Shown in pieces: positions 1 through 61,546 of a stretch of DNA of 61,546 nt (the stretch's first letter is position 1; each line of letters begins with the position of its first letter). This DNA is from Actinomycetes bacterium. Lineage in GTDB: Bacteria > Actinomycetota > Acidimicrobiia > Acidimicrobiales > JAJYXR01. The stretch covers positions 1-61,546 of the forward strand of contig JAJYXW010000040.1 of NCBI GenBank assembly GCA_021801525.1. The letters are read 5' to 3'. The notes beneath the pieces are model-generated. The model saw nothing but the letters and a program-made list of their open reading frames with translations. It searched no databases and was not told where the DNA came from. The position numbers were made by a program, and so were the translations under genes.

Positions 1-25
1 CGGGCGGCTCGCTGACCATGGCTCC

Positions 26-1399
26 TTGCGGCCCCTGCCTGTGGACAGGCCGGTGAGCACCCGGATCCTCGTCCTCGCGACGGACTTCCCGTGGCCTGCG
101 AACACCGGCTACCGCCGGCGCCTCGCGATGCAGGTCGAGGCCCTCGCTGAAATGGGCGACGTCGAGCTGTTCGCGATCACCCCCCCGGGGCGGCGCGAGC
201 CCTGCGAGCTGCCGGAAGCGTCAGGGGTCGTCGCGAGCGCCGCGCTTTCGAGAGCGCGGGTAGTGCCCGGTCCCCTCACCCGCCTCCTCGTCCGCCCACC
301 AGGCCCGGCGGCCAAAGCGATCGAGAGTGAGCGGCTCGGGAGCGAGTGGCTCGCGAAGGCTGTGGCCCGGGCCGAGTTCGCCACCCGTCGCGCATGGAGC
401 CTGGTCACAGCGCCGCTGCCAGCCGACCTGCCCGCGCCCAACGCCGCGGCGCTGCGCGACGGGCTCCGCCGGTTCGCGAGGCCGCCGTACGACCTCCTCT
501 GGTGCTCGCGCCCCGAGGCATTCATCGACCTCGGCTGCCCCCGGCTCGGCCGGACGGTACTCGACCTCGAGGACCTCGAGTTCGTAAAGCTCGAGGCCAT
601 GCGCGCGCATCTCGTGGAAGCTGCAAAGGCCACCGGTCTCCTCAGCTCGCGTGGGCTGCACCTGCGCGCAGCCTGGGCCGCATCCGAGGCGCGCCGCTGG
701 CGCCACGCGATCTCCTTGGCTGTGTCCCGGGTGGACCTTGCAGCGCTCTGCAGCGAGGAGGACGCCGCTCGCCTCGCCCTGCTCGGTTGTGCAGCCGAGC
801 TGCGCGTAGTGCCCAACGGCTACCCAGCGCCGAGGGCGCCCGCTGGGAGCTCTGCCCTGCACGACCCACCGGTCGTAGCACTTCACGGGCACCTGTGGTA
901 CGGCCCGAACCGCGATGCCGCCCTCGTCCTCGTGAACGAGGTCGGGCCGCGCCTCAGGCGCCTCGTGCCCGGCGTGCAGGTGCGCCTGATCGGTGAGGCC
1001 CCTCCCGAGCTCCACGCGCTCCACGACCCCCCGAGGGTGGTGGTGACCGGAGGGGTAAAGGACATGGCGGCGGCGTTGGCCGAGGTAGACCTCGTCGCGG
1101 CACCCATCCCGTACGGGAGCGGCACCCGTACGAAGCTGGTGGAAGCCTTTGCCCACCGCATCCCGGTCGTGTCGAGCACCGTTGGGGCAGAAGGCCTAGG
1201 AGCAGAGCACGGACAGCATCTCCTCCTGGCGGACGCCCCCGGCGCTTTCGCCGTGGCCTGCTCCCGCCTGCTAGGTGACGCCGCACTGCGAAGGGATCTA
1301 GCCGGAGCCGCCCAGGCCCTCTTCGAAGAGCGCTTCGAAGCGGCCTCGGTGAAGCGAGCCGTCAGCGAGGCTGCCGCTTCGGTTCTCTCCAATCGATAG
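26..1399 (+). CDS. glycosyltransferase, GT4-like (GT-B fold)
   Basis: 457-aa ORF. The C-terminal half carries a group-1 GT region (VVSSTVGAEGLG..HLLLADAP..LRRDLAGAAQALFEERF). TTG start at 26; the alternative GTG at 53 (VSTRILVLATD) gives a more typical N-terminus. Confidence 0.8.
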   Translation: MRPLPVDRPVSTRILVLATDFPWPANTGYRRRLAMQVEALAEMGDVELFAITPPGRREPCELPEASGVVASAALSRARVVPGPLTRLLVRPPGPAAKAIESERLGSEWLAKAVARAEFATRRAWSLVTAPLPADLPAPNAAALRDGLRRFARPPYDLLWCSRPEAFIDLGCPRLGRTVLDLEDLEFVKLEAMRAHLVEAAKATGLLSSRGLHLRAAWAASEARRWRHAISLAVSRVDLAALCSEEDAARLALLGCAAELRVVPNGYPAPRAPAGSSALHDPPVVALHGHLWYGPNRDAALVLVNEVGPRLRRLVPGVQVRLIGEAPPELHALHDPPRVVVTGGVKDMAAALAEVDLVAAPIPYGSGTRTKLVEAFAHRIPVVSSTVGAEGLGAEHGQHLLLADAPGAFAVACSRLLGDAALRRDLAGAAQALFEERFEAASVKRAVSEAAASVLSNR

Positions 1400-1839
1400 C
1401 GCACCGACTTCTGCCGCACTATGTGCTCTGGTGCCCACGTCAGGTGTCTATCGAAGCGCCCGCCTGCCACTGTGTCCCCCATCTATCACGCCGGCCTGGA
1501 CATACCGGCCAGGCCGCTGCCTGTTTAGCCACTACCCGTAAGTACATAGGTGCATATTGGCAGGCATATCGCGAGCACATTTCCTACATGAGCGCGAATA
1601 AGTGCGGGGCCTCATTCGTCCATATAGTGCCGAGCGAGCTTAGTGACATTGTGGCCTCTGGATTTCGCCACATTGATCATTGACAAGGGCATGCAATCCG
1701 TGTTCTCTTGTCGGTAGCATCACCCCGGCGAGGGGCTGTGCGCGCCGCGGAGGGGAGGGGTTTTCCGCTTGACGGTAACCGCAGTGTCCCTGAAGCGGGA
1801 CCACATACACGACCAGTAACGAAAAAGGAGAATCACCGT

Positions 1840-2569: not shown

Positions 2570-3580
2570 ATGGGGCGCCCCGAGCGCTCTGTACGCCCTG
2601 TGCTCGGCGTGCTCAGTGCCCTGGCTGCCACGGCGCTAGTCGCGACATCTTGCGGGTCGAGCACGCCTCGGGGTGGGGCCGCGAAGTCCGCGTCCAGCGC
2701 GTCAGGCAACGCCGGCGCCAGGTCCGCTGCCATTGCCAAGGGATCGCCGGGCACGAAGCCAGGCAGCAGCTCCTCCCAGGCCGCCACTAGCTCCAAGCCA
2801 TCTCAGGGACGATACGCTACCCCTGGCGGCGGCACGAGCACGGGCTCTGTGGGCCAAGGCGCTGGCAGCTCCTCCACCAGGCAGGCCGAGGTGGCCGCTG
2901 CAGACCATGCGCTCTCCTCGTACTTCGCCGCGCTCTCCTCCCACAACGCGAGTGCGCTCGGGTCAGTCTCCACCGGCCCCGCACAGGACTACGGCGTGGT
3001 GCTCGTGGACATCGCCTCTATCGACCAGAAGAAGGGCGCGACGGTATCCACCAGGACCTCGCCTTCCTTCACGGTCAGCTCAGCTACCCCCACGCAGGTC
3101 GTCTTCGGAGGTTCTGGGACCGTCACCGGCACGGTGTCGGGCCCGAAAGGATCCAACACCTCCACCGACACCCTCTCGGGCCCGCTCGTCGTGGTGAGAG
3201 GCAGCTCCGGTTGGCTCGTCTCCTCGTTCCTCGTGAACGCGAAGCCAATGGTCGAATGGGTGGAGGCGCAGACGCAATCGGAGGGGGGCATCACAGTCGA
3301 GGTTGGCAGCATCCTCTCCTACGGCGACATCACCATGGTGCTCATAGCCCTCGGAGCCCCCTCGGGCAGCTCGCACGTGGTGCTCCAGAGCGCAGTGCTC
3401 ACGAGCCCGTCCGGCAGCGAGACCGGAACCGGCAACTTCACCGCCCCGCCCACTCCTGTCGGCGTGCTCCGCTTTGCGAGGATTGGCGGCAATCCGAGCG
3501 CCCTCGCCCTCTCCTTCTCGACCTCGAGCGGGTCCACCCTCTCCTACCACTTCGGGCTGAGCGCCGGTCCCACCTCCTGA
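2570..3580 (+). CDS. putative lipoprotein, Ser/Gly/Thr-rich linker plus globular domain, unknown function
   Basis: The internal ATG at 2570 gives MGRPERSVRPVLGVLSALAATALVATSCGSS, a signal peptide plus lipobox-like ATSC. The ORF-track start at 2384 lies inside the upstream hairpin, so it was rejected. ATG 2510 is also possible. Confidence 0.55.
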   Translation: MGRPERSVRPVLGVLSALAATALVATSCGSSTPRGGAAKSASSASGNAGARSAAIAKGSPGTKPGSSSSQAATSSKPSQGRYATPGGGTSTGSVGQGAGSSSTRQAEVAAADHALSSYFAALSSHNASALGSVSTGPAQDYGVVLVDIASIDQKKGATVSTRTSPSFTVSSATPTQVVFGGSGTVTGTVSGPKGSNTSTDTLSGPLVVVRGSSGWLVSSFLVNAKPMVEWVEAQTQSEGGITVEVGSILSYGDITMVLIALGAPSGSSHVVLQSAVLTSPSGSETGTGNFTAPPTPVGVLRFARIGGNPSALALSFSTSSGSTLSYHFGLSAGPTS

Positions 3581-3603
3581 GGAGCCGACCTCCTGAGGAG
3601 GCA
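3572..3603. repeat. 16-bp tandem duplication spanning the lipoprotein stop codon
   Basis: ACCTCCTGAGGAG occurs at 3572-3584 and 3588-3600. Each copy contains the CCTCC-TGA-GGAGG palindrome. Confidence 0.8.
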
Positions 3604-3656: not shown

Positions 3657-5474
3657 TCAGCCGGCTGCCTCGACCTCTTCCAAGGGAGCATCGTCCGCCG
3701 CGTGCGGCGTGCCGTCCGCGGACGGCACCCCGAAGCCGGCGCCAGGAGCGGAGATCGTCCCTTCCTCTCCGGTACGGGCCGGAGCGTGGAGCAACCTCGG
3801 CGACTCCGGGGCGAAGGCGGGTCGACCGAGCCCGTGCAGGCGCAAGAAGCGCGCCATGCTCCTGAAGTGCCAGATGGTGGCACGCGTGAGGAACCGCTTT
3901 GACGTGAGCGCGCCCAGGTCGTGCTCCGCCAGGGCGCCCGGTACGTAAGCGACTGCGTAACCCGCGTCCCAGGCCCGCCGGCAGAGGTCGATGTCCTCGC
4001 AGTAGAGGCGGTACCCCTCGTCGAGACCGCCGAGGTCGTCCCATACCTGACGCCGGACGGCCATGGCCGCCCCGAGCACCCAGTCGACGCTGCATGGGCG
4101 CTTCAGGCGTGCGAGGTGATCCGCCTCCATCATGTGTCGCCGCTCTCCCTCGAATCCTCCTGGGAAAGCCCAGCGCAGAGGCGTCCTCCGCACCAGCGAT
4201 ACCCAGCCTGTCGGGAAGCGCCGTGCCGAGTGCTGGTCGGAGCCGTCGGGGTACACGAGGCGCGGCCCGCAGATCCCGACCTCGGGGTGAGCGTCGAGCA
4301 CTTCGATCAGGGTCGCGAGCGCGCCCTTGCGAAGCCTTGCATCGGGGTTCAACAGCACGATCACCTCGCCCAGCGCCAGGCGCGCGCCGAGGTTCGCGTT
4401 AGCTGCAAATCCCCGGCGGCGCGCAGAGCGCACCACCCTCGCCTTGGGGTACGCCTCTGCCGCAACGTCCGCAGAGGCATCCCTCGACGCGTTGTCGACC
4501 ACCACGACCTCGAGCGAACAAGCGGCCGCCTCGCCCCTGACGGCGGCCAGGCATGCGCCTATGTCGTCCGCTGAGTCGTGGGTGACGATGACGACGCTGA
4601 CATCAGGGAGCACCTCGCGGCCCGGCTCGGGCTGCAACGAGAGCGACCCTCCGCCTGCGAGCGCGTGCACAGCCTCGCCGGAGGGCTTGGGACGTCCAGG
4701 GTGCCTCCAAAGCGCGACCGCTCTCGACACGGTGCGAAGGGCGATCCGCATGTCGAACCACAGGCTCCAGCGCTCCAGGTACGCGCGGTCGATCTGCCGA
4801 CCCTCCTCCGGGTCGAGCCACCAGCTCCCGGCAACCTGCCACAGGCCGGTGATCCCGGGAAGCGTCGGGAGCCGCCAGCGGAACAGCTCCGGCGCTTCGC
4901 TCATCTCCGAAGGGAGGAAGGGCCTCGGACCAACCAAGCTCATCTGCCCCGCGAGCACGTTCAGGAGCTGCGGCACCTCGTCGAGGCAGGTGCGCCGGAG
5001 GACGCTGCCCACCCTGGTCACCCTGGGATCAGCACTCATCTTGAAGAAGGGCCCTCTCGCCTCGTTCGACGCGGCGAGCCCGGGCAGCATCGCCTCCGCG
5101 CCCGTCACCATCGAGCGGAACTTCCACATCCTGAAGGTTCTCCCCCCGCGCCCGACACGCACCTGGCGGAAGAAGACCGGCCCCGGGCTCTCGACCTTGA
5201 TGGCCAGGGCGACCACGAGCGCGAAGGGTGCGAAGGCCACCAGCGCCGCCAGGGCAAGCAAGTAGTCCGCCACCCGCTTGCAGGCCCACGCGGTGCGTCC
5301 TGGCGCGAACTCCAAGTTCGCGGTGCGTCCTGGCGCGAGCCCGCAGGTCTCGCGGCTTCCCGGTGCGGATCGGGCGGCGTCATCGTGCAGGCTGCCAGTT
5401 CGACCCGACAACTTGCCTCCCCACTGCAAGAGGGCGTCGCTCATCGCCGAGGTCGCCATCTTCACGGCCGGCAC
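3657..5474 (-). CDS. bifunctional phosphoglycosyl transferase (bacterial sugar transferase domain) fused to a GT2 glycosyltransferase
   Basis: N-terminal half: reentrant helix plus VESPGPVFFRQVRVGRGGRTFRMWKFRSM..DEVPQLLNVLAGQMSLVGPRP (WbaP/PglC-type). C-terminal half: VSVVIVTHDSADD..VVVVDNASRD..GFAANANLG..LNPD..CEDIDLCRR (GT2). Confidence 0.8.
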   Translation of the reverse strand: MPAVKMATSAMSDALLQWGGKLSGRTGSLHDDAARSAPGSRETCGLAPGRTANLEFAPGRTAWACKRVADYLLALAALVAFAPFALVVALAIKVESPGPVFFRQVRVGRGGRTFRMWKFRSMVTGAEAMLPGLAASNEARGPFFKMSADPRVTRVGSVLRRTCLDEVPQLLNVLAGQMSLVGPRPFLPSEMSEAPELFRWRLPTLPGITGLWQVAGSWWLDPEEGRQIDRAYLERWSLWFDMRIALRTVSRAVALWRHPGRPKPSGEAVHALAGGGSLSLQPEPGREVLPDVSVVIVTHDSADDIGACLAAVRGEAAACSLEVVVVDNASRDASADVAAEAYPKARVVRSARRRGFAANANLGARLALGEVIVLLNPDARLRKGALATLIEVLDAHPEVGICGPRLVYPDGSDQHSARRFPTGWVSLVRRTPLRWAFPGGFEGERRHMMEADHLARLKRPCSVDWVLGAAMAVRRQVWDDLGGLDEGYRLYCEDIDLCRRAWDAGYAVAYVPGALAEHDLGALTSKRFLTRATIWHFRSMARFLRLHGLGRPAFAPESPRLLHAPARTGEEGTISAPGAGFGVPSADGTPHAADDAPLEEVEAAG

Positions 5475-7072
5475 CGGGCCCGGCCGCCCTGTCCCGCCAG
5501 AGCAGCGCTCGACAGCTCGTGGGCTCGGAGCGCGAGGGCGACGAGCAGCGTGTCGTCGGGGTCGTCGAACACCAGGCCGGTAAGGCGCTCGAAGCGCTCC
5601 AGGCGCGTCGAGAGGGTGTGGCGGTGCACGCCGAGACGCCTGGCGGCGCCAAGCACGTTGCCGCCCTGCGCGATGAACGCTGACGCGGCGGCCAGCAGGC
5701 TCGCCGCTTCCTCGGAGGGCGCACGACCCGCCTGGACACCGAGCGGGCCCAGTACAGCAGCCTCTATCTCCGCAGCGCGCGCCGAGTCACCGAGCAGCAG
5801 CAGGGGCACGAGCGCCCTGCGATGGCCGATTACCATGAGCCCCTCCGAGCCCGGTCGCCACCCGGGCCGCTCCGAAGAGAGGCAAGCGACTCGAAGCGAC
5901 TCGAGCGCCTGCTCGTAGCTCGCCCTGATGCCCGCAGGACCGGTTCCCGCGAGGCCCACGCCGGCCGCGACCCGCGTGCCCTCGGGGAGCACCAGACCCG
6001 AGAGTGCCTTCGAGAGGAAGGCTTCCACCTTGTCGCAAGCATGCTCGCCGGCGCTGTCCTCATCACCACGGACCGGGAACGCCGCAACCAGCCCCCGGTC
6101 GCGCCCGGAATCGTGATCCACATCGATCTCGAGGACTCGCCCGGTATCGCGTCCGGTATCGCGTCGGCCTAGCGCGTCCCTGGCGAGCCGGCTGACGCGC
6201 CTCGAGCACATCGGCGGGCCGGCTCCGATGTCCGCACTCTCGATCTCCGACAGCAGTTTGTCGAGGAGAACCCCCGGGTCCTCGACCCCACGCGCCAGGG
6301 TGCTGAGCGCCACCACTGCGAGCACATAGAGGCCTCCTGCAAGCCAGGCCGGCTCTGGCACCTGGCCCGACCCGGGGCCTGATGCGGCAGGGGCGGCGTC
6401 CAGCAGCTCGTCAAGCGCGTTGCCGCCCGGCAACGGATCCTGCGCCTGGAGGTTCTCGTGAAATCCTTCGGTGAGCGCAGCCGTGCTGCGCCCGCTGCCC
6501 ATCACCGCGGCCTTCGCGAGCATGGCGAGCATCGTCCTGGCGCTCTGCGGATCCCCGACCTCCCCGTCGAGCCCTGCGATGAGGGTCTCGAATGCGGCGC
6601 GGCAGGCCGCCTCGTGGCAGGCGAGGACAGTGTCGAGGCCAAGGCCCTCACGGCGGAGGATGCGACCGAGCGCGCGGTGGCAGCCGAATGGCGCTCCGGG
6701 ATGCGGCGGCTCACCCTGGAGGGCGGCGCTCAACAGGTAGCCCGCGTACTCGCGCCCGGCCGCGTGCAACATCGATACGCAGGACTCACCGAGTGGCGTA
6801 GTCCCCCCGGCGCCGTAAGCCCCGAGGAAGGCGTCGCGCAGGGTCGCAGCCAGCTCGTCTAGCCGCTCGATCAAGCCGCCCGGCGCGCCATGAGCAGAGC
6901 CCCCGCTGGAATCGGGATCGGGCCCCCAGGTGTCCGTAGCCGCGATCTGCCCATCCGAGTCATCCATCACGACGAGAGCCGGCACCGCCAGGTTGCCTCG
7001 AGTGCCGCCGGTTCCGGCGTCACCAAGACGACTGGGGCTTGCTGCCACGGCTCCTCCCGAACTCGCAACCAT
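5462..7072 (-). CDS. PucR/CdaR-like transcriptional regulator
   Basis: C-terminal HTH NVLGAARRLGVHRHTLSTRLERFERLTGLVFDDPDDTLLVALALRA, typical of the PucR C-terminal domain. The gene overlaps the downstream transferase gene by 13 nt. Confidence 0.7.
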   Translation of the reverse strand: MVASSGGAVAASPSRLGDAGTGGTRGNLAVPALVVMDDSDGQIAATDTWGPDPDSSGGSAHGAPGGLIERLDELAATLRDAFLGAYGAGGTTPLGESCVSMLHAAGREYAGYLLSAALQGEPPHPGAPFGCHRALGRILRREGLGLDTVLACHEAACRAAFETLIAGLDGEVGDPQSARTMLAMLAKAAVMGSGRSTAALTEGFHENLQAQDPLPGGNALDELLDAAPAASGPGSGQVPEPAWLAGGLYVLAVVALSTLARGVEDPGVLLDKLLSEIESADIGAGPPMCSRRVSRLARDALGRRDTGRDTGRVLEIDVDHDSGRDRGLVAAFPVRGDEDSAGEHACDKVEAFLSKALSGLVLPEGTRVAAGVGLAGTGPAGIRASYEQALESLRVACLSSERPGWRPGSEGLMVIGHRRALVPLLLLGDSARAAEIEAAVLGPLGVQAGRAPSEEAASLLAAASAFIAQGGNVLGAARRLGVHRHTLSTRLERFERLTGLVFDDPDDTLLVALALRAHELSSAALAGQGGRARCRP

Positions 7073-7225: not shown

Positions 7226-8479
7226 TTGCGTTCGGGCGTTCCCGCTTTGATGACCTCACGAAGCCTCACGCCTCGGCACGCGGACCTCGCCGAGGCCTCC
7301 TCTTCCTCTGACGGGATCGCCTCTGACGGGATCGCCTCTGACGGGATCGCCTCTGACGGGCTCTCCACCGCTGGGCAGTCGCCGATCGGCCACGTCGTTG
7401 CCGTGTGCGCCACAGCCGGCTGGCTCGCCGCAGGTGCAGGTGACACCCGCGTGCTCTGGGACAGCCGCGTGCTCTACCAGTCACTTCTCAGGTGGGGAGC
7501 GGGGTCGGTAGTGCCGCTGGCCCGCTTCGCCCGCTGGCAGGCACCGTTGGTACCGGCGGCGAGGCTGGCGTCGCACCCGCCCGGCAGCACGTCGCGCTGG
7601 AGGTCCACGACGCTGGCAAGGAGCATTCGCGACCTCGCCCAGGTACGCCACGTGGTGCCACCGGCCGGCACCGAGGTCCTCTACGGCCATATCGCATTTC
7701 CGGCCTGCGGCGGGCTCCCGACCATATGGAGCACCCAGGGAGTGCTGGACACCTATCCGGGCGTCTGGTTCCCCGAGCAGTCTGCCCGCACCCACGAGCG
7801 ATTCGCCCAGCGCGCAGCGGTCGTCCAGTGCTGGTCCGAGCTCGGTCGCCGCGGCATGCTCGAGCGCTGCGAGCACCTCGAGCAGTCCCGCGTCCTTGTG
7901 GTCCCTCCCCTCGTGTACGTCGACCTCGACTTGGCGGACGGCACCGGCCAGCCGTCGCGAAATCGCGAGCCCGGCGACGTGAAGGCGATCTTCGTCGGTG
8001 CCGAGGGCGCCCGAAAAGGGCTGCGGGAGCTCGTCTCCGCCGTGGATCGCACCGGTCCGGGCCTCCGCTTGGAAGTGGTTACCGCAGATCCCCGGCCGGA
8101 GCAGCTCCCTTCGTCAGTGGACTGGCTCGGACCGCTCCCCCGTGCCGAGGTGCTGCGCCGTTTCACAGAGAGCGACATCCACGTGCTGCCGAGCCTTACG
8201 GAGTCCTTCGGCGGCGTATGCGTGGAGGCGCTCGCGGCGGGCATTCCCCAGGTGCTGGCTCCCGGCACCGTGCCGGCCGAGATAGCCGGGGACAGCGCAA
8301 TCCTGGCGGACCCCTCCGACCCGGCGGCAATTGCCGGTGCACTCGCTAGGCTTGCCGGGGACGCCTCGTTGCGCGCACGACTCGGCCGTCTCGCCCGGCA
8401 GCGCTTCGAGAGCTTCTACTGCCCCGAGGCCGTGGGCCCGAGAATGGCCGAGCTCGTCGAGCAAGCTTGCGCCAGCTGA
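7226..8479 (+). CDS. glycosyltransferase, GT4-like
   Basis: C-terminal motif VLPSLTESFGGVCVEALAAGIPQV..DPSDPAAIAGAL..LRARLG. The start is uncertain. The first ~85 codons contain two tandem repeats and may be leader sequence rather than coding. Confidence 0.7.
   Translation: MRSGVPALMTSRSLTPRHADLAEASSSSDGIASDGIASDGIASDGLSTAGQSPIGHVVAVCATAGWLAAGAGDTRVLWDSRVLYQSLLRWGAGSVVPLARFARWQAPLVPAARLASHPPGSTSRWRSTTLARSIRDLAQVRHVVPPAGTEVLYGHIAFPACGGLPTIWSTQGVLDTYPGVWFPEQSARTHERFAQRAAVVQCWSELGRRGMLERCEHLEQSRVLVVPPLVYVDLDLADGTGQPSRNREPGDVKAIFVGAEGARKGLRELVSAVDRTGPGLRLEVVTADPRPEQLPSSVDWLGPLPRAEVLRRFTESDIHVLPSLTESFGGVCVEALAAGIPQVLAPGTVPAEIAGDSAILADPSDPAAIAGALARLAGDASLRARLGRLARQRFESFYCPEAVGPRMAELVEQACAS
7306..7363. 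repeat. 15-bp tandem repeat, about 3.8 copies (CTCTGACGGGATCGC)
   Basis: Read directly. If translated in the frame of ORF 7226 it gives SDGIASDGIASDGIASDG. Confidence 0.9.
7447..7482. repeat. 18-bp tandem duplication (CCGCGTGCTCT core)
   Basis: CCGCGTGCTCT occurs at 7447 and 7465. Each copy carries a candidate GTG start (..RVLWDS RVLYQS..). Confidence 0.7.
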
Positions 8480-8506
8480 GGAGAGCAAGCCTGCGGAACC
8501 TGCGGA
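8459..8506. repeat. 24-bp tandem duplication spanning the stop codon of the GT4 gene
   Basis: GAGCAAGCTTGCGCCAGCTGAGGA followed by GAGCAAGCCTGCGGAACCTGCGGA. Confidence 0.7.
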
Positions 8507-8535
8507 GAGAGACGGAGACGTGAGAGGCCCGGCGG

Positions 8536-9732: not shown

Positions 9733-9754
9733 CGCAATCGATCCAGAGGCCCGT

Positions 9755-9805
9755 TCCCCGAGGAGGCCGGCTATGGCTCTTCCCCGAGGACGCCGGCTAT
9801 GGCTC
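9755..9805. repeat. 26-bp tandem duplication spanning the stop codon of the minus-strand GT4 gene
   Basis: TCCCCGAGGA(G/C)GCCGGCTATGGCTC occurs at 9755-9779 and 9781-9805. The unit is not a multiple of 3, so the TAG is in frame only in the distal copy. Confidence 0.85.
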
Positions 9806-10991
9806 CGGCGAGCAGCTCGGCTCCCATGTCCTCGCAGAAACGCTCCTCCACGATCCGCCTGCCCAGCTTGCCCATGGCCGACCGCTCCTCGGGCGGACTG
9901 CGCAGCACTGCGGCCAGGGCTCCTGCCAACGCCTCCGGTTCGCCCGGAGGAACGAGCACCCCGCTCCCGGGTTCCACTAGCTCGGGTATTCCGAACGCGT
10001 CGCTCGCCACGACCGGCAGCTCCATCGCCATCGCCTCCTTCAGGACCACTGGCATCGAATCGCGGTCGCCCCACGACGCGATCCTGCAGGGAGCTGCGAG
10101 CACGTCGGCCCCGGCCAAGAGCTCCATGACATCCCCCGGGGAGATGTCCCCGATCAGCTCCACGCTCTCTGTCAGGCCAAGCCTTGCAATCAGCTTTCGG
10201 AGTGGTTCCTCCTCGCTGCCCGAACCTGCTATGCGGCAGCGCACCCCTGGGTCGTGCGTGAGCGAGAGCAGTCCTACGGCCCTCACCAGGACGTCGAAGC
10301 CCTTCTTTTCCTCGAGCCTGCCGACGCCCACGATCACCTTTCCCGGGCGCGCAGGCCGCGGCTCCTCGAGTCGTACTCGGGCTGTATCTACGCCCGCGTA
10401 TTTCACGAGGACGTCGCCGGCAGCAATCCCCGGGCACCTCTCTACGATCTGCTCCACGTTGTAGCGGCACACGGTGACCCTGAGCGCAGCCGAGCCGAGA
10501 ACACGCCGGAGGGTCCCCTGCCTCACGTACAGGTCCGCACCGTGGACGGTGACGCCGAAGGGAACACCGGCAAGGCGCGACGCGAAGTACGCCACCTCCC
10601 CCGCTACGTCGGCGAAATGGGCGTGCAGGTAGCGGATCTCGCGCTTTGCGACCAGGTGCGCCACGACGAGCGCCCTGCCGAGGTCAACCAATGCCAGCCT
10701 GCTCGGATGGCGGGCCACGACTGCCGCGCACGCGAGGCTGCGCCACGGATGGCGGGTGATCGTCGCCAAAACGGCCGCCAGACGCGCCCTCCTGGTGAGT
10801 TCCTCGATCCAGAGCGCGCGATCGACGAGCGCCTGCACGCCCGGATGCTCAACCGAGTCCTCCTGACGCTGACAGGCGATGATGGCCGGGGAGATCCCCC
10901 GGCGCTCCAGAGCCAGGAGCTCTTCCACGATGAACGTCTCCGACAGCTTCGGGAACTTCCAGAGAACATATGCGATCGGCCCGAGCGTCAC
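9771..10991 (-). CDS. glycosyltransferase, GT4-like (WcaL-like N-terminus)
   Basis: IAYVLWKFPKLSETFIVEELLALERRG at the N-terminus. EEKKGFDVLVRAV..PCRIASWGDRDSMPVVLKEAMAMELPVVASDAFGIPELV in the C-terminal half. GTG start. Confidence 0.8.
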   Translation of the reverse strand: MTLGPIAYVLWKFPKLSETFIVEELLALERRGISPAIIACQRQEDSVEHPGVQALVDRALWIEELTRRARLAAVLATITRHPWRSLACAAVVARHPSRLALVDLGRALVVAHLVAKREIRYLHAHFADVAGEVAYFASRLAGVPFGVTVHGADLYVRQGTLRRVLGSAALRVTVCRYNVEQIVERCPGIAAGDVLVKYAGVDTARVRLEEPRPARPGKVIVGVGRLEEKKGFDVLVRAVGLLSLTHDPGVRCRIAGSGSEEEPLRKLIARLGLTESVELIGDISPGDVMELLAGADVLAAPCRIASWGDRDSMPVVLKEAMAMELPVVASDAFGIPELVEPGSGVLVPPGEPEALAGALAAVLRSPPEERSAMGKLGRRIVEERFCEDMGAELLAGAIAGVLGEEP

Positions 10992-12036: not shown

Positions 12037-13539
12037 ATGGCCACGAAGCAGCTTCGTACTGCGTTCTTCCCCATTAGGGAAGCGCTCGCGCGAGCCGCGC
12101 GACATAGCGTACGCGGCATTGCGGCGTCGCTCCTGGCCGGGGGTGTCCTCGTGGCAGTGATGCTGGCAGGTGTCCAGAGCGCGTCGGCGCAGGTGGGATC
12201 GAACCCTTTCTCCACGGACGGCAGCGTGGTGTCGAGCGGGCAGCCAGTCCCGAACGTCCCCGGAACCACCGGCAGCTTCGTCCTCGGCAGCCTCACCAAC
12301 ACTACCGGGTACATATCGCCGGCCGAGAACGCGAGTGGGCAGGTGACGATCGACGAGACAAGCTCCACTTCGTACTACTCGTGTAACTCCGCCGGTAAGA
12401 GCTGCACTGTCTCGAGCGCGGCCAGCGTGGTCGCACCCGGGAACGAGCTGTTCGTGTCCGGCCACTATTTCGTCGAGAACGGCACCTACGAGCTGATCGC
12501 CGAGTATGTCTTCAGCCCGCCGCCGGCATCTTCGACGGCGCCGCCCGCGCCTCCGGCGCCGCAACCCACCGGCTTCTACGACTACATACCGGCCAACGCC
12601 TTCGGCGTCACGGGTTATGTCACGTCACCGGGCACCTACCTCGTCAACCAGCTCCTGTGGAGCCCGCTGTGGGGGTTCACGCTCGGCCACTTCGGGAGGT
12701 TCCCGAACGGCTACGGATGCGGATCTGCGAGCAACTGTACGACTGAGCAGATCGCGCTCTCCAACTCCAACCATCTATTCATCGACGCGACCTCCTTGAC
12801 GACCACGTTCTGGCTGGCCAGCGCCACGGCCACCACTTCGAGCGGCGAGGTTGTGGGCTGCAGCTACAGCCAGAGCACGGACACCTTCGCCGTCATCGAC
12901 TACTACGGATCGAAGGACGGTCTGACCGCCACCGGGAGGTTCCTCTACAGCGGGAACCAGTGGCGCTTCACAGCGTCCAATGTGTTCTCGCCGCCGCCGG
13001 CGCCGCCAAGCGCCTACGCGGCGGGAGGTGTCTGCGCCTCGACTCCCCAGAGGATCGGCCCGGTGAGCGCCTCGTCTCCTGCCGTGTCGGAGTCCTCGCA
13101 TGGAACCGCCCAGCCGGGAGGCACCGGCTACGACAACACGACCTGGCAGGGCACGTTCGGCACAGGGTTCGGGCCCGAGGGCGGGGTCTTCTCGGACGGA
13201 ACGATCCAGCTCACGCTCGACTGGGCACTCGTTCCCGCCGCCGGAAACCTGCCGGAGCACTGGCACTTCTATGGCACCTATACCGCATCCAACCAGTCAG
13301 GGTCGACAACCCTGGCAGGACAGATAAGTGGCTCGGCGGGGGTGGCGTCCACTGGCGCGGGGACCGAGCCTGTCAACGCGACCATGACCATGGACCAGGG
13401 AACCGGCCAGTTCGCCGGATTCAGCGGGTACGGGACCGTCTCCGGTGACGCCGCTTACAGCGCCGGCCAGCCGCTCCCCGTGCTCCAGAGCCTCGACTTC
13501 GTCTGGAACATTCAGTCGACGTCGAGCTCCGGCACGTAG
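12037..13539 (+). CDS. secreted protein of unknown function with internally duplicated segment and Pro-rich linkers
   Basis: RBS GAGAGGAGAG lies upstream of the start. N-terminal TM/signal sequence GIAASLLAGGVLVAVMLAGVQSASAQ. The motif (Y/N)VFSPPPA(S/P).. occurs twice, about 155 aa apart. Confidence 0.6.
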   Translation: MATKQLRTAFFPIREALARAARHSVRGIAASLLAGGVLVAVMLAGVQSASAQVGSNPFSTDGSVVSSGQPVPNVPGTTGSFVLGSLTNTTGYISPAENASGQVTIDETSSTSYYSCNSAGKSCTVSSAASVVAPGNELFVSGHYFVENGTYELIAEYVFSPPPASSTAPPAPPAPQPTGFYDYIPANAFGVTGYVTSPGTYLVNQLLWSPLWGFTLGHFGRFPNGYGCGSASNCTTEQIALSNSNHLFIDATSLTTTFWLASATATTSSGEVVGCSYSQSTDTFAVIDYYGSKDGLTATGRFLYSGNQWRFTASNVFSPPPAPPSAYAAGGVCASTPQRIGPVSASSPAVSESSHGTAQPGGTGYDNTTWQGTFGTGFGPEGGVFSDGTIQLTLDWALVPAAGNLPEHWHFYGTYTASNQSGSTTLAGQISGSAGVASTGAGTEPVNATMTMDQGTGQFAGFSGYGTVSGDAAYSAGQPLPVLQSLDFVWNIQSTSSSGT

Positions 13540-15871: not shown

Positions 15872-15940
15872 GACTGGGCTGCCCATGAGACTGGGCTGCC
15901 CATGAGACTGGGCTGCCCATGAGACTGGGCTGCCCATGAC
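15860..15940 (+). repeat. 17-bp tandem repeat, about 4.7 copies (GCTGCCCATGAGACTGG), forming four ATGA-linked 6-codon mini-ORFs between the GT4 gene and the flippase gene
   Basis: ATGs at 15868, 15885, 15902, 15919 and 15936. Each ATG AGA CTG GGC TGC CCA TGA ends on the A of the next ATGA. The first ATGA contains the GT4 stop and the last ATG is the flippase start. Confidence 0.95.
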
Positions 15941-38166: not shown

Positions 38167-38172
38167 CACTCC

Positions 38173-39996: not shown

Positions 39997-40002
39997 CATC
40001 TC

Positions 40003-43155: not shown

Positions 43156-43181
43156 CAGCACTGTTGGGCAGATCACCCTGG

Positions 43182-43226
43182 CTCCTACCACCAACGGCTC
43201 CTGCCACCAACGGCTCCTGCCAGCCA
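43182..43226. repeat. 16-bp tandem repeat, about 2.8 copies (CTCCT(A/G)CCACCAACGG), in a convergent intergenic region
   Basis: Read directly between the stop at 43155 and the dapE stop at 43270. Confidence 0.85.
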
Positions 43227-44346: not shown

Positions 44347-44408
44347 GACCGGCGCGCCTTCACGAGCTGTGCGCCTTCACGAGCAGTGCTTCTTCACGGG
44401 ACGTGATC
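44341..44408 (-). repeat. 17-bp tandem repeat, 4 copies, forming three GTGA-linked 6-codon mini-ORFs that end on the dapE start codon
   Basis: Minus-strand GTGs at 44397, 44380, 44363 and 44346. The mini-ORFs are GTG AAG AAG CAC TGC TCG TGA, GTG AAG GCG CAC AGC TCG TGA and GTG AAG GCG CGC CGG TCG TGA. Each TGA overlaps the next GTG, and the last GTG is the dapE start. Confidence 0.95.
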
Positions 44409-51484: not shown

Positions 51485-51504
51485 GCTGGGACCGGCTGGG
51501 ACCG
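51485..51504. repeat. 10-bp tandem duplication (GCTGGGACCG), 2 copies, upstream of miaB
   Basis: Read directly. Confidence 0.7.
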
Positions 51505-52523: not shown

Positions 52524-53162
52524 ATGGCTGGGGGTGACCTCGATGACCTCTACGGAGGCGACGTAGAAGCGGAAGAAGAGCGCGAAGAAGAGGCAGAAGT
52601 GGCGCGGATCCGTTGGAGCATTCCTGAGATGGCGGTCGTTGTCGCGCTGGTGACAACTGGTGCGTTGGCCGTGAGCGGTGTGGTCGGCGGAGTGGCGGTC
52701 GCCCTGACCGTGAACCCCCTCGCCATGGGTCCGGGTTTCTCGATCACGGCGGACGCCATGACGGCAGCATCGTGGTGGGCCAGCTTCGTGCTGGCACTCG
52801 TGCTTCTCGGTGCCCTATGGGTATGCCTGCACGAGGTCGACGCCGGATCGGTGGCCCTGCCAGATGAGGGCACGGCAGGTGAGGGAACCGGTCAGGGCGT
52901 CCTCCAACCCGATCCCATGGAGCGGGTGCGGCGGGCCGCCTTGCTCTCGGCGTGGGTGCGGGCCGCGCTAGCTCTCATCGCGCTCGGAGCCGCGGCCTCG
53001 TTCGCTGGCACGGTCATCATGGAGACCGGCCCCGCGTCGCGAGGAGCGTCGTGGGTCGGCTTCATCCCAGGCCTCTCCAGCGACGTCGTGACCATCGCGC
53101 TCGGCGTCACGGGGATCATTGCCTGGAACCTCGTTGGCCGTCCCCCTGCGCGCGAGGCCTAG
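52524..53162 (+). CDS. membrane protein of unknown function (acidic N-terminus, about 4 TM)
   Basis: The ORF has hydrophobic segments (MAVVVALVTTGALAVSGVVGGVAVAL.., ..WWASFVLALVLLGALWV..). No recognisable family. Confidence 0.4.
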   Translation: MAGGDLDDLYGGDVEAEEEREEEAEVARIRWSIPEMAVVVALVTTGALAVSGVVGGVAVALTVNPLAMGPGFSITADAMTAASWWASFVLALVLLGALWVCLHEVDAGSVALPDEGTAGEGTGQGVLQPDPMERVRRAALLSAWVRAALALIALGAAASFAGTVIMETGPASRGASWVGFIPGLSSDVVTIALGVTGIIAWNLVGRPPAREA

Positions 53163-54448: not shown

Positions 54449-54470
54449 TCCAGGGCATTCTCTAGCCAGC

Positions 54471-55715
54471 TCAAAGCGGCAGGTCCCCGGTGGCGGCACG
54501 AGTGGTCCCGCTTGCCCGCCAGGCTTCGATCGCAGCCTCTGCCACACGCCATTTGTGGACCTCGTCGGCGCCATCGGCGAAGCGGCTCCAGCGCGCTTGG
54601 AGGAGCATCTCCGAGAGCGGGGAGTCCCTGGAGTAGCCGAGCGCGCCATGCACCTGGACTGCGCGGTCGCAGATCCTCCACAGCGTGTTAGCCACATGGT
54701 GCTTGGCCATGGAGACCTCGGTCAGGAACGGTAAAGAAGCCTCGATACGGTACGCGGCGTGGAGCACCATCAGCTTCGCCTGGTAGAGCTCTATGGCCGA
54801 CTCGCTTATCAACCACTGGATACCCTGCTTGTCCGCCAGGTACGAGCCATGCGCGTACCGAGAGGTAGCCCGCTCGACCATCATGTCGAGCGCGGCCTCG
54901 GCTTGCCCGATCCAGCGCATGCAATGGGCCAGCCGCGCGGGTCCGAGCCGGTACTGCCCGAGCCGGTGCCCCTGGCCGCGTCCTCCGAGCAGCGCTTCCT
55001 CGGGCACCCTCACGCCCGACATGCGGATCTCGCAGTGGTTGTGGCTCCCAGACATCGTCTCCACGTCGCGGACTATCTCGAACCCTCCGGTCGGTATGTC
55101 GACCAGGAATGCCGAAGTAGCGGCCTGGGGGACGGGAGGCTCGTCCTCGGTACGCGCTATGACAATGGCGAACGACGCACCTCGCGCGCCGGAGACGAAC
55201 CACTTGTGGCCGTCGATAACCCAGTCGCTCCCGTCCCGGATCGCTCGCGACTGCATGAGGGTTGGATCCGACCCAGCGACCTCGGGCTCGGTCATGGCGA
55301 AGCACGATCTCGTGCTGCCCTCGGTGAGCGGACGAAGGTACCTCTCCTTCTGCTCTGCAGTTCCCCAGTGGAGGATCGTGTGCATGTTGCCCTCGTCGGG
55401 CGCGTAGCAGTTCACGACGTAGGGGCCCATCCGCGCCTTGGCCAGCTCAGCCGAAACCGCTGCAAGGGCTGTCGGCCCGAGCCCCATGCCGCCCCACTCC
55501 GCAGGCATGTGCGGCAGCCAGAGCCCCTGGTCGCGCGCTGATGCTCGTAGAGCCTGGAGCGTCGCCCGCCAGTCCGCACGCCCAGCCCCTTCAGCCGCCA
55601 GGCGCTGCTCCCCCGGCCTTACCTCCTCGTCCACGAAGGCCCGGACGCGTTGCCGGACATCCTCCACTTCCGGCGGGAAGCTGAAGTCGATGGCCATCGC
55701 CGGATCTTGCCACAC
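54471..55715 (-). CDS. acyl-CoA dehydrogenase
   Basis: ..CFAMTEPEVAGSD..; ..GHKWFVSG..; C-terminal ..QVHGALGYSRDSPL.. Confidence 0.85.
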   Translation of the reverse strand: MWQDPAMAIDFSFPPEVEDVRQRVRAFVDEEVRPGEQRLAAEGAGRADWRATLQALRASARDQGLWLPHMPAEWGGMGLGPTALAAVSAELAKARMGPYVVNCYAPDEGNMHTILHWGTAEQKERYLRPLTEGSTRSCFAMTEPEVAGSDPTLMQSRAIRDGSDWVIDGHKWFVSGARGASFAIVIARTEDEPPVPQAATSAFLVDIPTGGFEIVRDVETMSGSHNHCEIRMSGVRVPEEALLGGRGQGHRLGQYRLGPARLAHCMRWIGQAEAALDMMVERATSRYAHGSYLADKQGIQWLISESAIELYQAKLMVLHAAYRIEASLPFLTEVSMAKHHVANTLWRICDRAVQVHGALGYSRDSPLSEMLLQARWSRFADGADEVHKWRVAEAAIEAWRASGTTRAATGDLPL

Positions 55716-55777
55716 CGTGGCCTCCGGACCGAGACGACCGGCGCTAAGGCACGGAGCGGCTCTAACATCCCTCTCGT

Positions 55778-56421: not shown

Positions 56422-56473
56422 AGGCCAGGCGGATAGGCCAGGCGGATAGGCCCACCGGACAGGCAAGCCTGCC
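56422..56473. repeat. 13-bp tandem repeat, about 3-4 copies (AGGCCAGGCGGAT; later copies degenerate)
   Basis: Read directly in the intergenic region before the merR-like gene. Confidence 0.8.
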
Positions 56474-59526: not shown

Positions 59527-60261
59527 CAGGTGCCCAGCCCTCGGCAGCGTGACAAGCCTGGCCCCCGGGATGGCATCCGCAACGGCTGCTGCCGACCAGG
59601 GCCGGACCACCAGGTCCCAAGTGCCCGACAAGACCTCGGTCGGCACCCTCACCGCTGCAAGCGACTCCTCGACGGCACGGATCTCGTCCAGGAGGAAACG
59701 CTGCTCGGCCACGAAGCTCCTCCAGACCCTGCGCCCGGCGGCCGCGGCAACCTCACGGTAGCGCTCGTCGGGGAGGGTCGCCGACAGCCATTCTCCAAGG
59801 GGAGCCGGAGCGCGGGCACCTGCCCGCCTGAGCGGCGGCAGCAGGACCCCGAAACTGCTGAGCGCCCCCATCGCCATGACCTCGCCCGCCCCCCGAAGGG
59901 CAACCAGGCGGTCGGGCACGCCGAGCGCCCTTGCCACGCCGACAGGCGCCACGAGGACCAGGCCCCTCACAGAGGAGGGATATGTGGCCGCCAGTAGTGA
60001 GGCGATCCCCGCGCCGAAGCTGTGGCCCACCACCACCGCGGGTGCCAATGCGCGCTCCTCGACGAAGGCGGCGAATCGCCGTGCAGCTTCTGCAATCCCG
60101 ATCGCCTCTTCACCTGATGCGCCATATCCGGGGCGATCAGGGGCTATTACCAGGTGGTCGCGCTCGAGCAATCCCGCTAGCTCGCTGAAGTCCGAACCCA
60201 GTCCGGGCTGGCCGTGAAGTGCTAGGACCGCAGGCCCAGCGCCACACTCAAGGGCGTGCAT
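59458..60261 (-). CDS. alpha/beta-fold hydrolase (MenH-like by context, tentative)
   Basis: ..LALHGQPG..; nucleophile elbow VGHSFGAG; convergent with menF. Confidence 0.65.
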   Translation of the reverse strand: MHALECGAGPAVLALHGQPGLGSDFSELAGLLERDHLVIAPDRPGYGASGEEAIGIAEAARRFAAFVEERALAPAVVVGHSFGAGIASLLAATYPSSVRGLVLVAPVGVARALGVPDRLVALRGAGEVMAMGALSSFGVLLPPLRRAGARAPAPLGEWLSATLPDERYREVAAAAGRRVWRSFVAEQRFLLDEIRAVEESLAAVRVPTEVLSGTWDLVVRPWSAAAVADAIPGARLVTLPRAGHLLTRDAPEAIALAVRRVEREGAR

Positions 60262-61546
60262 TGCCTACCTCATTACCTACCTTATTGCCTACACCGCGGC
60301 CTACACCATGGCCTACACCGTGGCCTACACGCTCGCGACCACCCCGATCGAGGCTCCTGGGCGCCGGGTGCGAGCCAGAAGGCTCGCCTGCAGGGAAGCT
60401 CGCGAGAGGAAGCTCGATCTCGAAGGCGGCACCCCTCGAAGCGCTGCGCACGACACGCGCGCTGCCTCCGTGCGCCTCGGCGATTGCGGCCACGATTGCA
60501 AGACCGAGACCGCTGCCCTCGCGAGCCGGGGCGCCGGGTGCGCGGTAGAAGCGGTCGAAGACTCGCTCGGCTTGATCGTCGCTGAGCCCCGGGCCCTCGT
60601 CCTCGACCCTCAGAAACACCCGGCCGCCGTCCGCTCTCAATCCCACGTGAACCGGGGTACCGGACTGGGTGTGCACGCGCGCGTTGGACAGCAGGTTTCC
60701 CACTGCCTGGCGCAGCCTGTCGGAGTCTCCGAGCACGACGAGCGGACCAGGGGAGTCGAAGGTGTGAGGGCGATCGGGAGAGGCCACGGCGGCATCTTGG
60801 ACTGCCTCGCCCACGAGCTCGGTGAAGTCCACCGGCGCCAGGTCGAGCGGACGCCCCTGGTCGAGGCGAGCAAGTAGAAGGAGGTCGTCCACCAGGACGC
60901 CCATCCGTGCGGCTTCACGCTCGATGCGATCTGCCGCGCTCTGGCGATCCTCTTCGCTCTCCAGCGCACCCTTGCGCAGAAGCTCCGCGTAGCCCCGGAT
61001 GGAGGTGAGCGGCGTGCGGAGCTCGTGGGACGCGTCAGCGACGAAGTGCCTCAGGCGCGCTTCGGACGCGGTCCGGCCACGGAAGGCCGCCTCGATCTGC
61101 GCGAGCATCCCGTTCAGCGCCCGGCCGAGCCGCCCCACCTCGCTGCGCTCGTCGGCATACGCGACCCTCCTCGACAGGTCCCCGTCCGCTATCGCACCTG
61201 CGGTGGCTGCCATCTCCTCGAGGGGTCGGAGGCCGGCCCGGGTGATCCACCACGTGAGCCCGATCAGCGCAAGCACCACCAGCAACGAGACCAGGATCTC
61301 CACATGGTCGAGGGATTCGATCGTCTGGCTGGACGGACTTCGCGCGACGAGCGTAACCAGCGTCCCGCCGGGGAGCGCCAGCGCGGCAGCCTCGTAGTGA
61401 GGGCCCCCCCGAGTGGCTGCCTTCACCATGAAGAACGAGGCGCCGGGGGTGTAAACGCCGTGGCGTGCTCCGAAGCGGTAGTGCCTCGGGTGCGACTGCA
61501 CGGGGAGGTGCGCCGGGAGCAGCGGGGGCGGATCCTGCTGGTCACG
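60248..61546 (-). CDS. sensor histidine kinase (HAMP-HisKA-HATPase), 5' end outside the window
   Basis: ..FVADASHELRTPLTSIRGYAELL..; N/G boxes ..GNLLSNARVHT.., ..DEGPGL.., ..GSGLGLAIV... The reading frame stays open upstream of 61501 to the window edge. The C-terminal tail is repeat-encoded. Confidence 0.85.
   Translation of the reverse strand, partial: RDQQDPPPLLPAHLPVQSHPRHYRFGARHGVYTPGASFFMVKAATRGGPHYEAAALALPGGTLVTLVARSPSSQTIESLDHVEILVSLLVVLALIGLTWWITRAGLRPLEEMAATAGAIADGDLSRRVAYADERSEVGRLGRALNGMLAQIEAAFRGRTASEARLRHFVADASHELRTPLTSIRGYAELLRKGALESEEDRQSAADRIEREAARMGVLVDDLLLLARLDQGRPLDLAPVDFTELVGEAVQDAAVASPDRPHTFDSPGPLVVLGDSDRLRQAVGNLLSNARVHTQSGTPVHVGLRADGGRVFLRVEDEGPGLSDDQAERVFDRFYRAPGAPAREGSGLGLAIVAAIAEAHGGSARVVRSASRGAAFEIELPLASFPAGEPSGSHPAPRSLDRGGRERVGHGVGHGVGRGVGNKVGNEVGNARP
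60261..60332. repeat. 12-bp tandem repeat, about 6 copies (GCCTACAC-type), in the kinase 3' end next to the hydrolase start
   Basis: Encodes GHGVGHGVGRGVGNKVGNEVGN at the kinase C-terminus. The array begins at the hydrolase ATG (60261). Confidence 0.9.

Follow-up and report, generated by a model that had tools for sequence, protein, structure and literature searches.

The DNA analysed here, the 61,546-nucleotide contig JAJYXW010000040.1 (hereafter the window), carries a surface-polysaccharide gene cluster, a toxin-antitoxin island and a housekeeping block, and is rich in short tandem arrays that crowd at the starts and stops of genes. The window (61.5 kb) has a GC content of 68% and a coding density of 91%; gene calls were borrowed from conspecific contigs and mapped onto it, and each was verified as an intact open reading frame (ORF). 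The surface-polysaccharide cluster (~1-35 kb) encodes many GT1, GT2 and GT4 glycosyltransferases, a Wzx-type flippase, Wzy and Wzz, with ABC transporter and amino-acid metabolism genes interspersed. The toxin-antitoxin island adjoins a tRNA-Val gene (36.4-40.7 kb), and the housekeeping block (41-61.5 kb) contains dapE, dapD, hflX, dapF, miaA, miaB, menaquinone genes and a two-component kinase gene.

Proteins encoded in the window recurred identically on 16-23 contigs per look-up, among metagenome-assembled genomes (MAGs) at NCBI, ENA assemblies and a JGI metagenome, and the contigs that were fetched were 99.2-99.96% identical to the window. For comparison within the species we used 27 loci from independent assemblies, representing at least 10 samples and three sources. 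Because the nearest MiaB among GTDB representative genomes, found in Acidimicrobiia/Acidimicrobiales MAGs, was only 65-67% identical, the source is an uncultured member of Acidimicrobiia (Actinomycetota) without a close GTDB representative. No relative of the flippase was found among the GTDB representative genomes.

Tandem arrays are concentrated at gene boundaries

The original prediction, made by eye, had listed 23 tandem repeats, most of them near gene starts or stops. Tandem Repeats Finder (TRF) recovered arrays at 20 of these sites (6141, 7305, 8459, 9754, 14693, 15860, 18589, 19544, 21629, 25307, 25370, 26907, 30958, 35359, 43180, 44340, 47884, 51485, 56422 and 60259/60287), and the remaining three (3572, 5289 and 7447) were seen on reading the sequence, as direct repeats that are imperfect or interrupted; the listed repeats are thus real. 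Units measured 9-26 bp, plus one super-unit of 36 bp, and occurred in 2-6 copies, with arrays no longer than 80 bp. As in minisatellites, the copies stand head to tail without unique spacers, the units fall within ~10-100 bp, and strains differ by whole units. These are not CRISPR arrays, since the copies abut with no spacers between repeats. Exact arrays (period 10-40, at least two copies) numbered 13, against a mean of 0.30 and a maximum of 3 in 100 third-order Markov simulations. At a TRF score of at least 50 and a period of at least 9, there were 19 arrays, against 0.8 in the simulations.

The arrays were located close to the ends of coding sequences (CDSs). At a TRF score of at least 60, 15 of 17 arrays lay within 60 nt of a CDS start or stop (3.9 expected) and 10 within 15 nt (2.1 expected), counts that were matched in none of 5000 permutations. 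When a crude in-house gene caller was used instead of the mapped calls, 14 of 16 arrays were near a boundary, compared with 3.5 expected. The crowding that had been noticed by eye was therefore confirmed, as an enrichment above permuted positions.

The periods of the arrays depended on their location. All eight strong arrays inside CDSs had a period that is a multiple of three (12, 15, 15, 15, 15, 18, 18 and 12 bp), and these in-frame survivors were placed in the first or last few dozen codons. Among intergenic or boundary-crossing arrays the proportion was 5 of 13, near the one-third expected without constraint. Survival in CDSs of multiples of three alone is a signature of purifying selection on the reading frame.

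Arrays along the window

In the first part of the polysaccharide cluster, the repeat listed at 3572 (3565-3600, plus strand; ~16 bp, 1.8 copies; ACCTCCTGAGGAGCCG) duplicates the TGA stop codon of the gene ending at 3580; it lies under the TRF threshold and was found by reading, as were a 20-bp repeat with an 11-bp spacer at 5289 and an imperfect repeat at 7447 (~18 bp, 1.9 copies). The array at 6141-6165 (12 bp, 2.1 perfect copies) lies in frame in the middle of a PucR-like regulator gene (5462-7048, minus strand). At 7305-7360 (plus strand; 15 bp, 3.7 perfect copies), 55 nt inside the called start of a GT1 gene (7250-8479), the array encodes an N-terminal (ASDGI)n stretch. The TGA of the same gene falls in the first copy of the array at 8459-8509 (plus strand; 24 bp, 2.1 copies), an old array with 81% matches that ends 27 nt upstream of the ATG of the following gene. 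The array at 9754-9805 (minus strand; 26 bp, 2.0 copies) runs across the TAG stop codon of another GT1 gene (9771-10928, minus strand); because its period is not a multiple of three, the two copies fall into different reading frames, and the in-frame TAG is that of the downstream copy only.

Two GT4 genes meet at an ATGA junction (14687-14690), and 6 nt after it the array at 14693-14734 (plus strand; 15 bp, 2.8 perfect copies) encodes an (HTTGS)n N-terminus. The array at 15860-15939 (plus strand; 17 bp, 4.6 copies) carries ATGA in each unit, with the stop codon of a GT4 gene in its first copy and the ATG of the flippase gene (15936) in its last. The array at 18589-18652 (minus strand; 15 bp, 4.3 copies) lies in frame in the C-terminal part of an ABC ATPase gene (18508-19515, minus strand), 5 nt past the stop codon of the convergent flippase gene. 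In every gene call these two genes overlap by 77 bp at their 3' ends (18508-18584), and the array starts 5 nt past the overlap. The array at 19544-19568 (minus strand; 9 bp, 2.8 perfect copies) is intergenic and abuts the stop codon of a substrate-binding protein gene (19567-20652, minus strand). In the spacer that separates the PTA_PTB stop (21708) from the start of the ABC permease gene (21621), an 18-bp array of 2.4 copies adjoins a 13-bp array of 2.2 copies (21629-21717, minus strand). Their units carry GGAGG(G) on the minus strand, and a Shine-Dalgarno-like motif thus occurs three times before the permease start.

Between an aminotransferase gene (start 25269, minus strand) and a GntR-family gene (start 25447, plus strand), a divergent promoter region holds 5.4 copies of a 10-bp unit (CGGCTGCTGG) and 2.0 copies of a 12-bp unit (TACCACGTTAGG) at 25307-25393. 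The GntR-family/aminotransferase fusion gene begins 54 nt downstream of the latter, a perfect direct repeat at 25370-25393 that could be an operator rather than a neutral duplication. The array at 26907-26977 (24 bp, 3.0 copies), between convergent genes, starts at the final base of the TGA of the GntR-family gene and holds the epimerase stop codon (26964-26966) in its third copy. The original prediction had stated that several repeats duplicate a stop codon, some a start codon and one the Shine-Dalgarno region. Stop codons were found in the units at 8459 and 9754, also at 26907, and in the repeat at 3572; start codons in those at 15860 (ATGA) and 44340 (GTG); and the multiplied Shine-Dalgarno region at 21629.

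The array at 30958-31029 (minus strand; 15 bp, 4.8 perfect copies) encodes (ASRAT)n if its GT4 gene starts at 31257, and lies 22 nt upstream of the start if this is at 30936. The sequences behind the 402-aa and 305-aa calls of this gene are otherwise near-identical, one single-nucleotide polymorphism (SNP) apart, and the coding signal is weaker in the extension; in truth the array may be located 22 nt upstream of the real GT4 start. Thus, of the two arrays described earlier as lying in mid-gene, that at 6141 does so, and that at 30958 does not unless the long gene call is taken, other calls starting 22 nt downstream. The PGI gene (33720-35435, minus strand) carries an in-frame array at 35359-35399 (minus strand; 18 bp, 2.3 copies), 36 nt into the gene as called.

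Start calls differed between assemblies on identical or near-identical sequence. The GT4 protein (30937-31257) was called with 402 or 305 aa, a methyltransferase (28909-29877) with 281 or 322 aa, and the regulator (5462-7048) with 528, 533, 507 or 436 aa. Frameshifts were considered as the origin of the GT4 and methyltransferase lengths and rejected, as the sequences are near-identical and the callers had settled on different start codons. Annotated starts in this high-GC lineage are not reliable, which bears on every distance-to-start statistic.

Six array sites lie in the housekeeping part of the window. The array at 43180-43222 (16 bp, 2.7 copies) is intergenic, between convergent genes, 25 nt past the stop of a Kelch-repeat gene. 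At 44340-44398 (minus strand; 17 bp, 3.5 copies, 85% matches), the units carry the GTG and context of the start of a dapE-like M20 gene (44346, minus strand). The array at 47884-47961 (minus strand; 18 bp, 4.3 copies) consists of two alternating variants that form the 36-bp super-unit; it lies in frame within the DapF C-terminal tail, and the GTGA junction of the dapF stop and hflX start follows after 13 nt. A 10-bp unit is present in 2.0 copies at 51485-51504, 12 nt upstream of the miaB start, and a 13-bp unit in 2.4-3.3 copies at 56422-56464, in the intergenic region 9 nt past a methyltransferase stop and upstream of a merR-family gene. Two adjoining 12-bp arrays at 60259-60330 (minus strand; 2.8 and 3.7 copies) are in frame in the C-terminal tail of a histidine kinase, and extend up to or across the start (60261) of the hydrolase gene downstream.

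Copy-number polymorphism among conspecific contigs

Seven arrays were polymorphic among conspecific contigs, by whole units save for one 18-bp variant unit at 15860, bearing out the expected copy-number variation between strains. The 15-bp array at 7305 had one unit fewer than, as many as, or one more than the window (11 contigs), and the GT1 protein was accordingly called with 404, 409 or 414 aa; the 15-bp array at 14693 showed the same three alleles. At 15860, the alleles differed from the window by -17, -16, 0 and +18 bp (11 contigs), about -1, 0 and +1 unit of 17 bp, the steps of -16 and +18 bp being due to the variant unit. The 15-bp array at 18589 had 0, 1 or 2 units fewer than the window (ABC ATPase of 335, 330 or 325 aa), as did the 18-bp array at 47884 (DapF of 381, 375 or 369 aa). 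The 15-bp array at 30958 was two units shorter than in the window in 8 of 8 other contigs, and the 12-bp array at 60287 was one unit shorter in one contig. In contrast to these, the arrays at 8459, 9754, 19544, 26907, 35359, 43180 and 44340 were invariant, as were those at 6141 (11 contigs), 21629 and 25307-25393 (14 contigs each). The variable arrays were all pure (90-100% matches) with about three or more copies, and two-copy or decayed arrays showed no variation among conspecific contigs. Independent assemblies reproduced the arrays, which are thus no artefacts of assembly.

In ~499 kb of pairwise alignment with 1290 mismatches, 13 of 17 distinct small-indel alleles were whole-unit repeat changes. 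Two other indels were examined as possible newborn duplications and rejected on reading: that at 14621 is a plain in-frame deletion, and that near 6061 belongs to a divergent, probably recombined patch. The patch (6040-6095), in the PucR-like regulator gene of contigs L002 and L004, shows clustered substitutions and a 15-bp in-frame insertion; these contigs are otherwise ~99.35% identical.

Contigs separated from the window by ~15 SNPs per 22.6 kb already differed at one to three of the four active arrays in that region. About 0.5 changes had occurred per active array at ~6.6e-4 SNPs per site, a relative and not an absolute rate because consensus contigs were compared. Active arrays change roughly 10^2.5-10^3 times faster than a nucleotide site, in the manner of variable-number tandem repeats (VNTRs). 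Classical contingency loci and phase variation are probably far faster than this. No polymorphic array switched the reading frame, and the flanking ORFs were intact in all alleles; polymorphic periods in CDSs were all multiples of three (15, 15, 15, 15, 18 and 12 bp), and the 17-bp array at 15860 sits between ORFs. Five of the seven polymorphic arrays were within the surface-polysaccharide cluster, which is also the most deeply sampled region.

Origin of the repeat units

The units had no common sequence. After correction for multiple testing, no k-mer (k = 4-6) was enriched among the units of the window or of 124 arrays from relatives. A shared CTGCC/GCTGCC motif was considered (CTGCC found 5 times against 1.45 expected; uncorrected p = 0.012 over 512 tests) and rejected, as it was not replicated in the 124 relatives' arrays. 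Many units contain the stop, start or ribosome-binding sequence of the neighbouring gene, and an Rfam scan of the window found tRNA only. For these reasons the units are locally duplicated sequence and not a dispersed family of the type of mycobacterial interspersed repetitive units (MIRUs), repetitive extragenic palindromes (REPs) or miniature inverted-repeat transposable elements (MITEs); for REPs, bacterial interspersed mosaic elements (BIMEs) and MITEs, neither a shared motif nor an Rfam family was present.

The array at 15860 has an architecture seen there alone among the arrays. Between the GT4 stop and the flippase start, at 15868-15939, four identical mini-ORFs of six codons (MRLGCP*) each overlap the next ATG by 4 nt. 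This ATGA chain arises automatically because the period is 2 modulo 3, and it was kept in contigs with fewer or more copies. From its sequence, the chain is predicted to relay the original stop/start coupling at any copy number.

Position and density of arrays in relatives

The same caller and criteria were applied to ~3.3 Mb of gene-called Actinomycetota sequence in 20-kb neighbourhoods. The proportion of arrays within 60 nt of a boundary was 44% in Acidimicrobiia (1.6 Mb; 21% expected), 56% in Streptosporangiales (0.22 Mb; 22% expected) and 36% in Pseudonocardiales/Mycobacteriales (1.4 Mb; 22% expected). Periods that are multiples of three and those that are not numbered 63 and 7 in CDSs and 32 and 26 outside in Acidimicrobiia, 20 and 1 against 10 and 14 in Streptosporangiales, and 82 and 11 against 21 and 30 in Pseudonocardiales/Mycobacteriales. 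Every Actinomycetota control set thus showed boundary enrichment and the frame filter, as in the window. In addition, six Acidimicrobiia relatives (L044, L050, L051, L074, L080 and L082) had unrelated arrays just upstream of miaB (locus positions ~9790-9995), in the spacer that holds the array at 51485 in the window; this would be expected if arrays are merely tolerated in such spacers. Across 5374 prokaryotic genomes, tandem repeats are more common upstream of starts and downstream of stops than within coding regions (PMC12418385).

We then expressed density as exact arrays per 10 kb, using for Acidimicrobiia 2.4 Mb in 148 loci (two neighbourhoods, mostly Acidimicrobiia). The window had 2.11, compared with 0.41 and 0.34 in the two Acidimicrobiia sets, 1.01 in Streptosporangiales, 0.49 in Pseudonocardiales/Mycobacteriales (1.6 Mb) and 0.12 in Proteobacteria; samples of Streptomyces and Rhodococcus plasmids had 0, and a Deinococcus plasmid sample 1.0. 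The window is therefore ~5 times as dense as the Acidimicrobiia average and ~17 times as dense as the proteobacterial controls, and the excess was present in all three of its 20-kb thirds (6, 3 and 4 arrays). Among control loci of at least 15 kb, 0-9% were as dense as the window (0-4% for Acidimicrobiia alone), and single loci of Planomonospora (4.2 per 10 kb) and Pseudonocardia (2.8 per 10 kb) equalled or exceeded it. The window is the upper tail of an Actinomycetota continuum and no separate class. The statement that bacterial chromosomes are normally poor in minisatellites was too strong for Actinomycetota, in which controls had 0.3-1.0 arrays per 10 kb and single loci 2.8-4.2. Of the two differences from relatives that had been anticipated, the higher density was found, whereas positional enrichment proved to be present in the relatives as well. 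The several-fold difference between Actinomycetota and Proteobacteria suggests that the two phyla differ in this tandem-duplication mutational class.

The phenomenon extends beyond Actinomycetota, since the Deinococcus plasmid control (L114, Deinococcus wulumuqiensis) also carries pure 12-17-bp arrays at gene ends and starts (4633-4768, 13318-13440, 30601-30644 and 41879-41919), with exact arrays at ~1 per 10 kb. A literature search on tandem repeats in Acidimicrobiia found nothing.

Other features of the window and controls

The island at 36400-40810, with a GC content that dips to 0.64, encodes ParE/PhdYeFM, a TacA/TacT-like acetyltransferase and two PhdYeFM/PIN pairs, next to tRNA-Val (40735-40809). 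Its content varies by strain: in contig L010 an HTH_7-domain gene replaces a PIN pair, and contigs L017 and L019 have a phage-type integrase beside the Kelch-repeat gene. The region looks like a tRNA-associated variable island. Further along, a 422-bp segment (52588-53009) of a hypothetical 212-aa gene is absent in L016, L020 and L021, where the gene is called with 72 aa. The acyl-CoA dehydrogenase gene (54452-55759) is absent in contig L016 and, as gene calls suggest, also in L018, L020 and L021.

Among the controls, the PLSDB entry 'Nonomuraea gerenzanensis plasmid I' (NZ_LT559118.1; L108/L109) is, at 11.85 Mb, evidently a chromosome that was deposited as a plasmid. The acyl-CoA dehydrogenase encoded there shares 72-86% identity with the enzymes of many Acidimicrobiia MAGs (L115-L194) and only 64% with the copy in the window, which hints at paralogy or transfer between classes.

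Discussion

The arrays of the window are VNTR-type minisatellites. Like the VNTR loci used for multilocus VNTR analysis (MLVA) typing of Mycobacterium, Burkholderia, Yersinia and other bacteria, they are made of head-to-tail units of ~10 bp or more, show whole-unit polymorphism between close strains, grow more unstable with copy number and purity, and are mostly intergenic or, in coding DNA, in frame. They differ from typical VNTRs in their high density (~2-3 arrays per 10 kb), short units (9-26 bp) and small arrays (2-6 copies), and in the unusually large share that straddles start or stop codons. They also agree with the 5374-genome survey, in which repeats are more frequent outside coding regions (PMC12418385); the survey describes a median trend that includes diverged repeats, whereas the window is an extreme case whose arrays are young (near-perfect) and demonstrably polymorphic.

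We consider it likely that the arrays arose as tandem duplications of local sequence, that slippage or unequal exchange then acted on those that are pure and multi-copy, and that purifying selection caused their crowding at boundaries. Each array would have begun as a tandem duplication of 9-26 bp of whatever sequence stood there. Once an array is pure and has about three or more copies, it would gain and lose whole units by replication slippage or unequal recombination. Such duplications are probably born throughout the chromosome. With a coding density of 91%, purifying selection would remove most of them: within genes, those whose length is not a multiple of three shift the frame, and in-frame ones in folded domains would usually be harmful. 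The survivors would be of three classes, namely arrays in the short spacers between genes, duplications that extend across a stop or start codon, and in-frame arrays in dispensable N- or C-terminal tails. Duplications of the second class would be the least harmful: translation can still end at the first in-frame stop and begin at the last start, so that neither of the neighbouring proteins is altered. Such a survival filter, and not targeting, would place the arrays at boundaries. We favour it because only multiples of three survive in CDSs, the same positional pattern is present in the controls, and the published survey agrees. The high density implies that such duplications either arise more often or disappear more slowly.

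Several points weigh against this explanation. With the same crude caller, 88% of the arrays of the window lay within 60 nt of a boundary, compared with 36-56% in the controls; this tighter hugging is not obviously predicted by a pure filter, although it may reflect younger arrays here and, in the controls, in-frame protein repeats of greater age. Among the conspecific contigs no newborn duplication was found, and a uniform origin is thus assumed. The bases shared beyond two exact copies exceed the expectation without microhomology, yet these are often decayed terminal copies, which confounds a test of birth by slippage. Finally, the evidence comes from 61.5 kb of this genome, and the controls are 20-kb neighbourhoods rather than whole genomes.

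The cause of the density is a separate matter. The original prediction proposed a peculiarity of replication or repair in this lineage. Such a peculiarity might raise the birth rate of short duplications genome-wide; this reading is compatible with the survival filter and concerns the density alone. Candidates would be loss of the single-stranded DNA exonucleases by which slipped intermediates are aborted, end joining or fill-in that is error-prone, or lack of loop repair. The window is indeed richer than its relatives (2.1 against 0.34-0.41 arrays per 10 kb; ~5 times the mean of the 2.4 Mb of mostly Acidimicrobiia sequence, with 0-4% of their loci of at least 15 kb reaching its density), the excess extends over all three thirds, and Actinomycetota are 3-8 fold above the proteobacterial controls. 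Against this, the Planomonospora and Pseudonocardia loci (2.8-4.2 per 10 kb) place the window in the upper tail of a continuum, a stretch of 61.5 kb may not represent the genome, and relaxed selection or a small effective population size would raise density too. We regard a repair peculiarity as possible, with the balance tilting against it.

The original prediction also proposed a selected mechanism that generates variation specifically at gene boundaries. In such a contingency-locus-like system, duplications would be made or kept at boundaries to tune expression coupling, protein termini and operator spacing. The very tight concentration (15 of 17 arrays within 60 nt), above that of the control sets, fits this proposal, as do the location of five of seven polymorphic arrays in the surface-polysaccharide cluster, the ATGA chain at 15860 that is unbroken at every copy number seen, and the three Shine-Dalgarno-like motifs at 21629. 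Like the contingency loci of Neisseria, Haemophilus and Campylobacter, the window has repeats near gene starts, in surface-polysaccharide genes and with variation between strains. Contingency loci, however, typically have units of ~1-9 nt and, at very high rates, turn genes on or off through frameshifts or altered promoter spacing, whereas no polymorphic array here toggles the frame, each being a multiple of three inside a CDS or lying outside CDSs, and the active arrays, at ~10^2.5-10^3 times the nucleotide-site rate, are probably far slower. The arrays in regulatory spacers (21629, 25307, 25370 and 44340) are invariant across 8-14 contigs, and the polysaccharide cluster is also the deepest-sampled region. 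Targeting is further opposed by the same positional pattern in unrelated actinomycetes and by the greater frequency of repeats outside coding regions across prokaryotes (PMC12418385). A boundary-specific generator is thus neither supported nor needed, and we judge it unlikely.

A related and bolder idea is that this lineage, and Actinomycetota to a lesser degree, has a distinctive mutational process that makes 10-26-bp tandem duplications unusually often, of which those at junctions are perhaps positively retained as tunable chains of coupled mini-ORFs or multiplied ribosome-binding sites. It is improbable in our view; if true, the arrays would be a locally generated functional analogue of MIRUs that adjusts operon stoichiometry.

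MIRUs themselves deserve comparison, since a dispersed family, mobile or structured (MIRU-, REP- or MITE-like), could have given rise to the arrays by inserting copies at gene junctions. The arrays resemble MIRUs in occurring in Actinomycetota, at co-oriented gene junctions and with variable copy number, and the array at 15860, with small ORFs joined to the flanking genes by 4-nt (ATGA) overlaps, is MIRU-like in this respect (PMC12548453). This coupling is found at 15860 only. MIRUs are a dispersed family with units of 40-100 bp and are thought to be mobile, whereas each array of the window has its own local unit of 9-26 bp, made of local stop, start or coding sequence; no dispersed unit and no significant k-mer is shared, and Rfam finds tRNA only. 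A dispersed family is thus very improbable. Assembly or binning artefacts are least credible of all: the sources are short-read MAG contigs, but MEGAHIT-style k141 contigs, NCBI MAGs and a JGI assembly all reproduce the arrays and differ by whole units only, arrays of at most 80 bp are shorter than typical short reads, and the in-CDS arrays respect the frame, which artefacts would not.

Taken as minisatellites shaped by a survival filter, the arrays reveal no new mechanism. They have practical uses: some seven polymorphic loci in 61 kb are available for strain typing of an uncultured Acidimicrobiia population that is found in many metagenomes, and annotators should expect protein lengths and start calls in MAGs to vary trivially, as in the 404/409/414, 369/375/381 and 305/402/412 aa reported for the same genes. 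The several-fold difference between Actinomycetota and Proteobacteria merits a genome-wide survey linked to repair-gene content. For the biology of the lineage, the window offers a clean natural example of how purifying selection shapes where tandem duplications survive.

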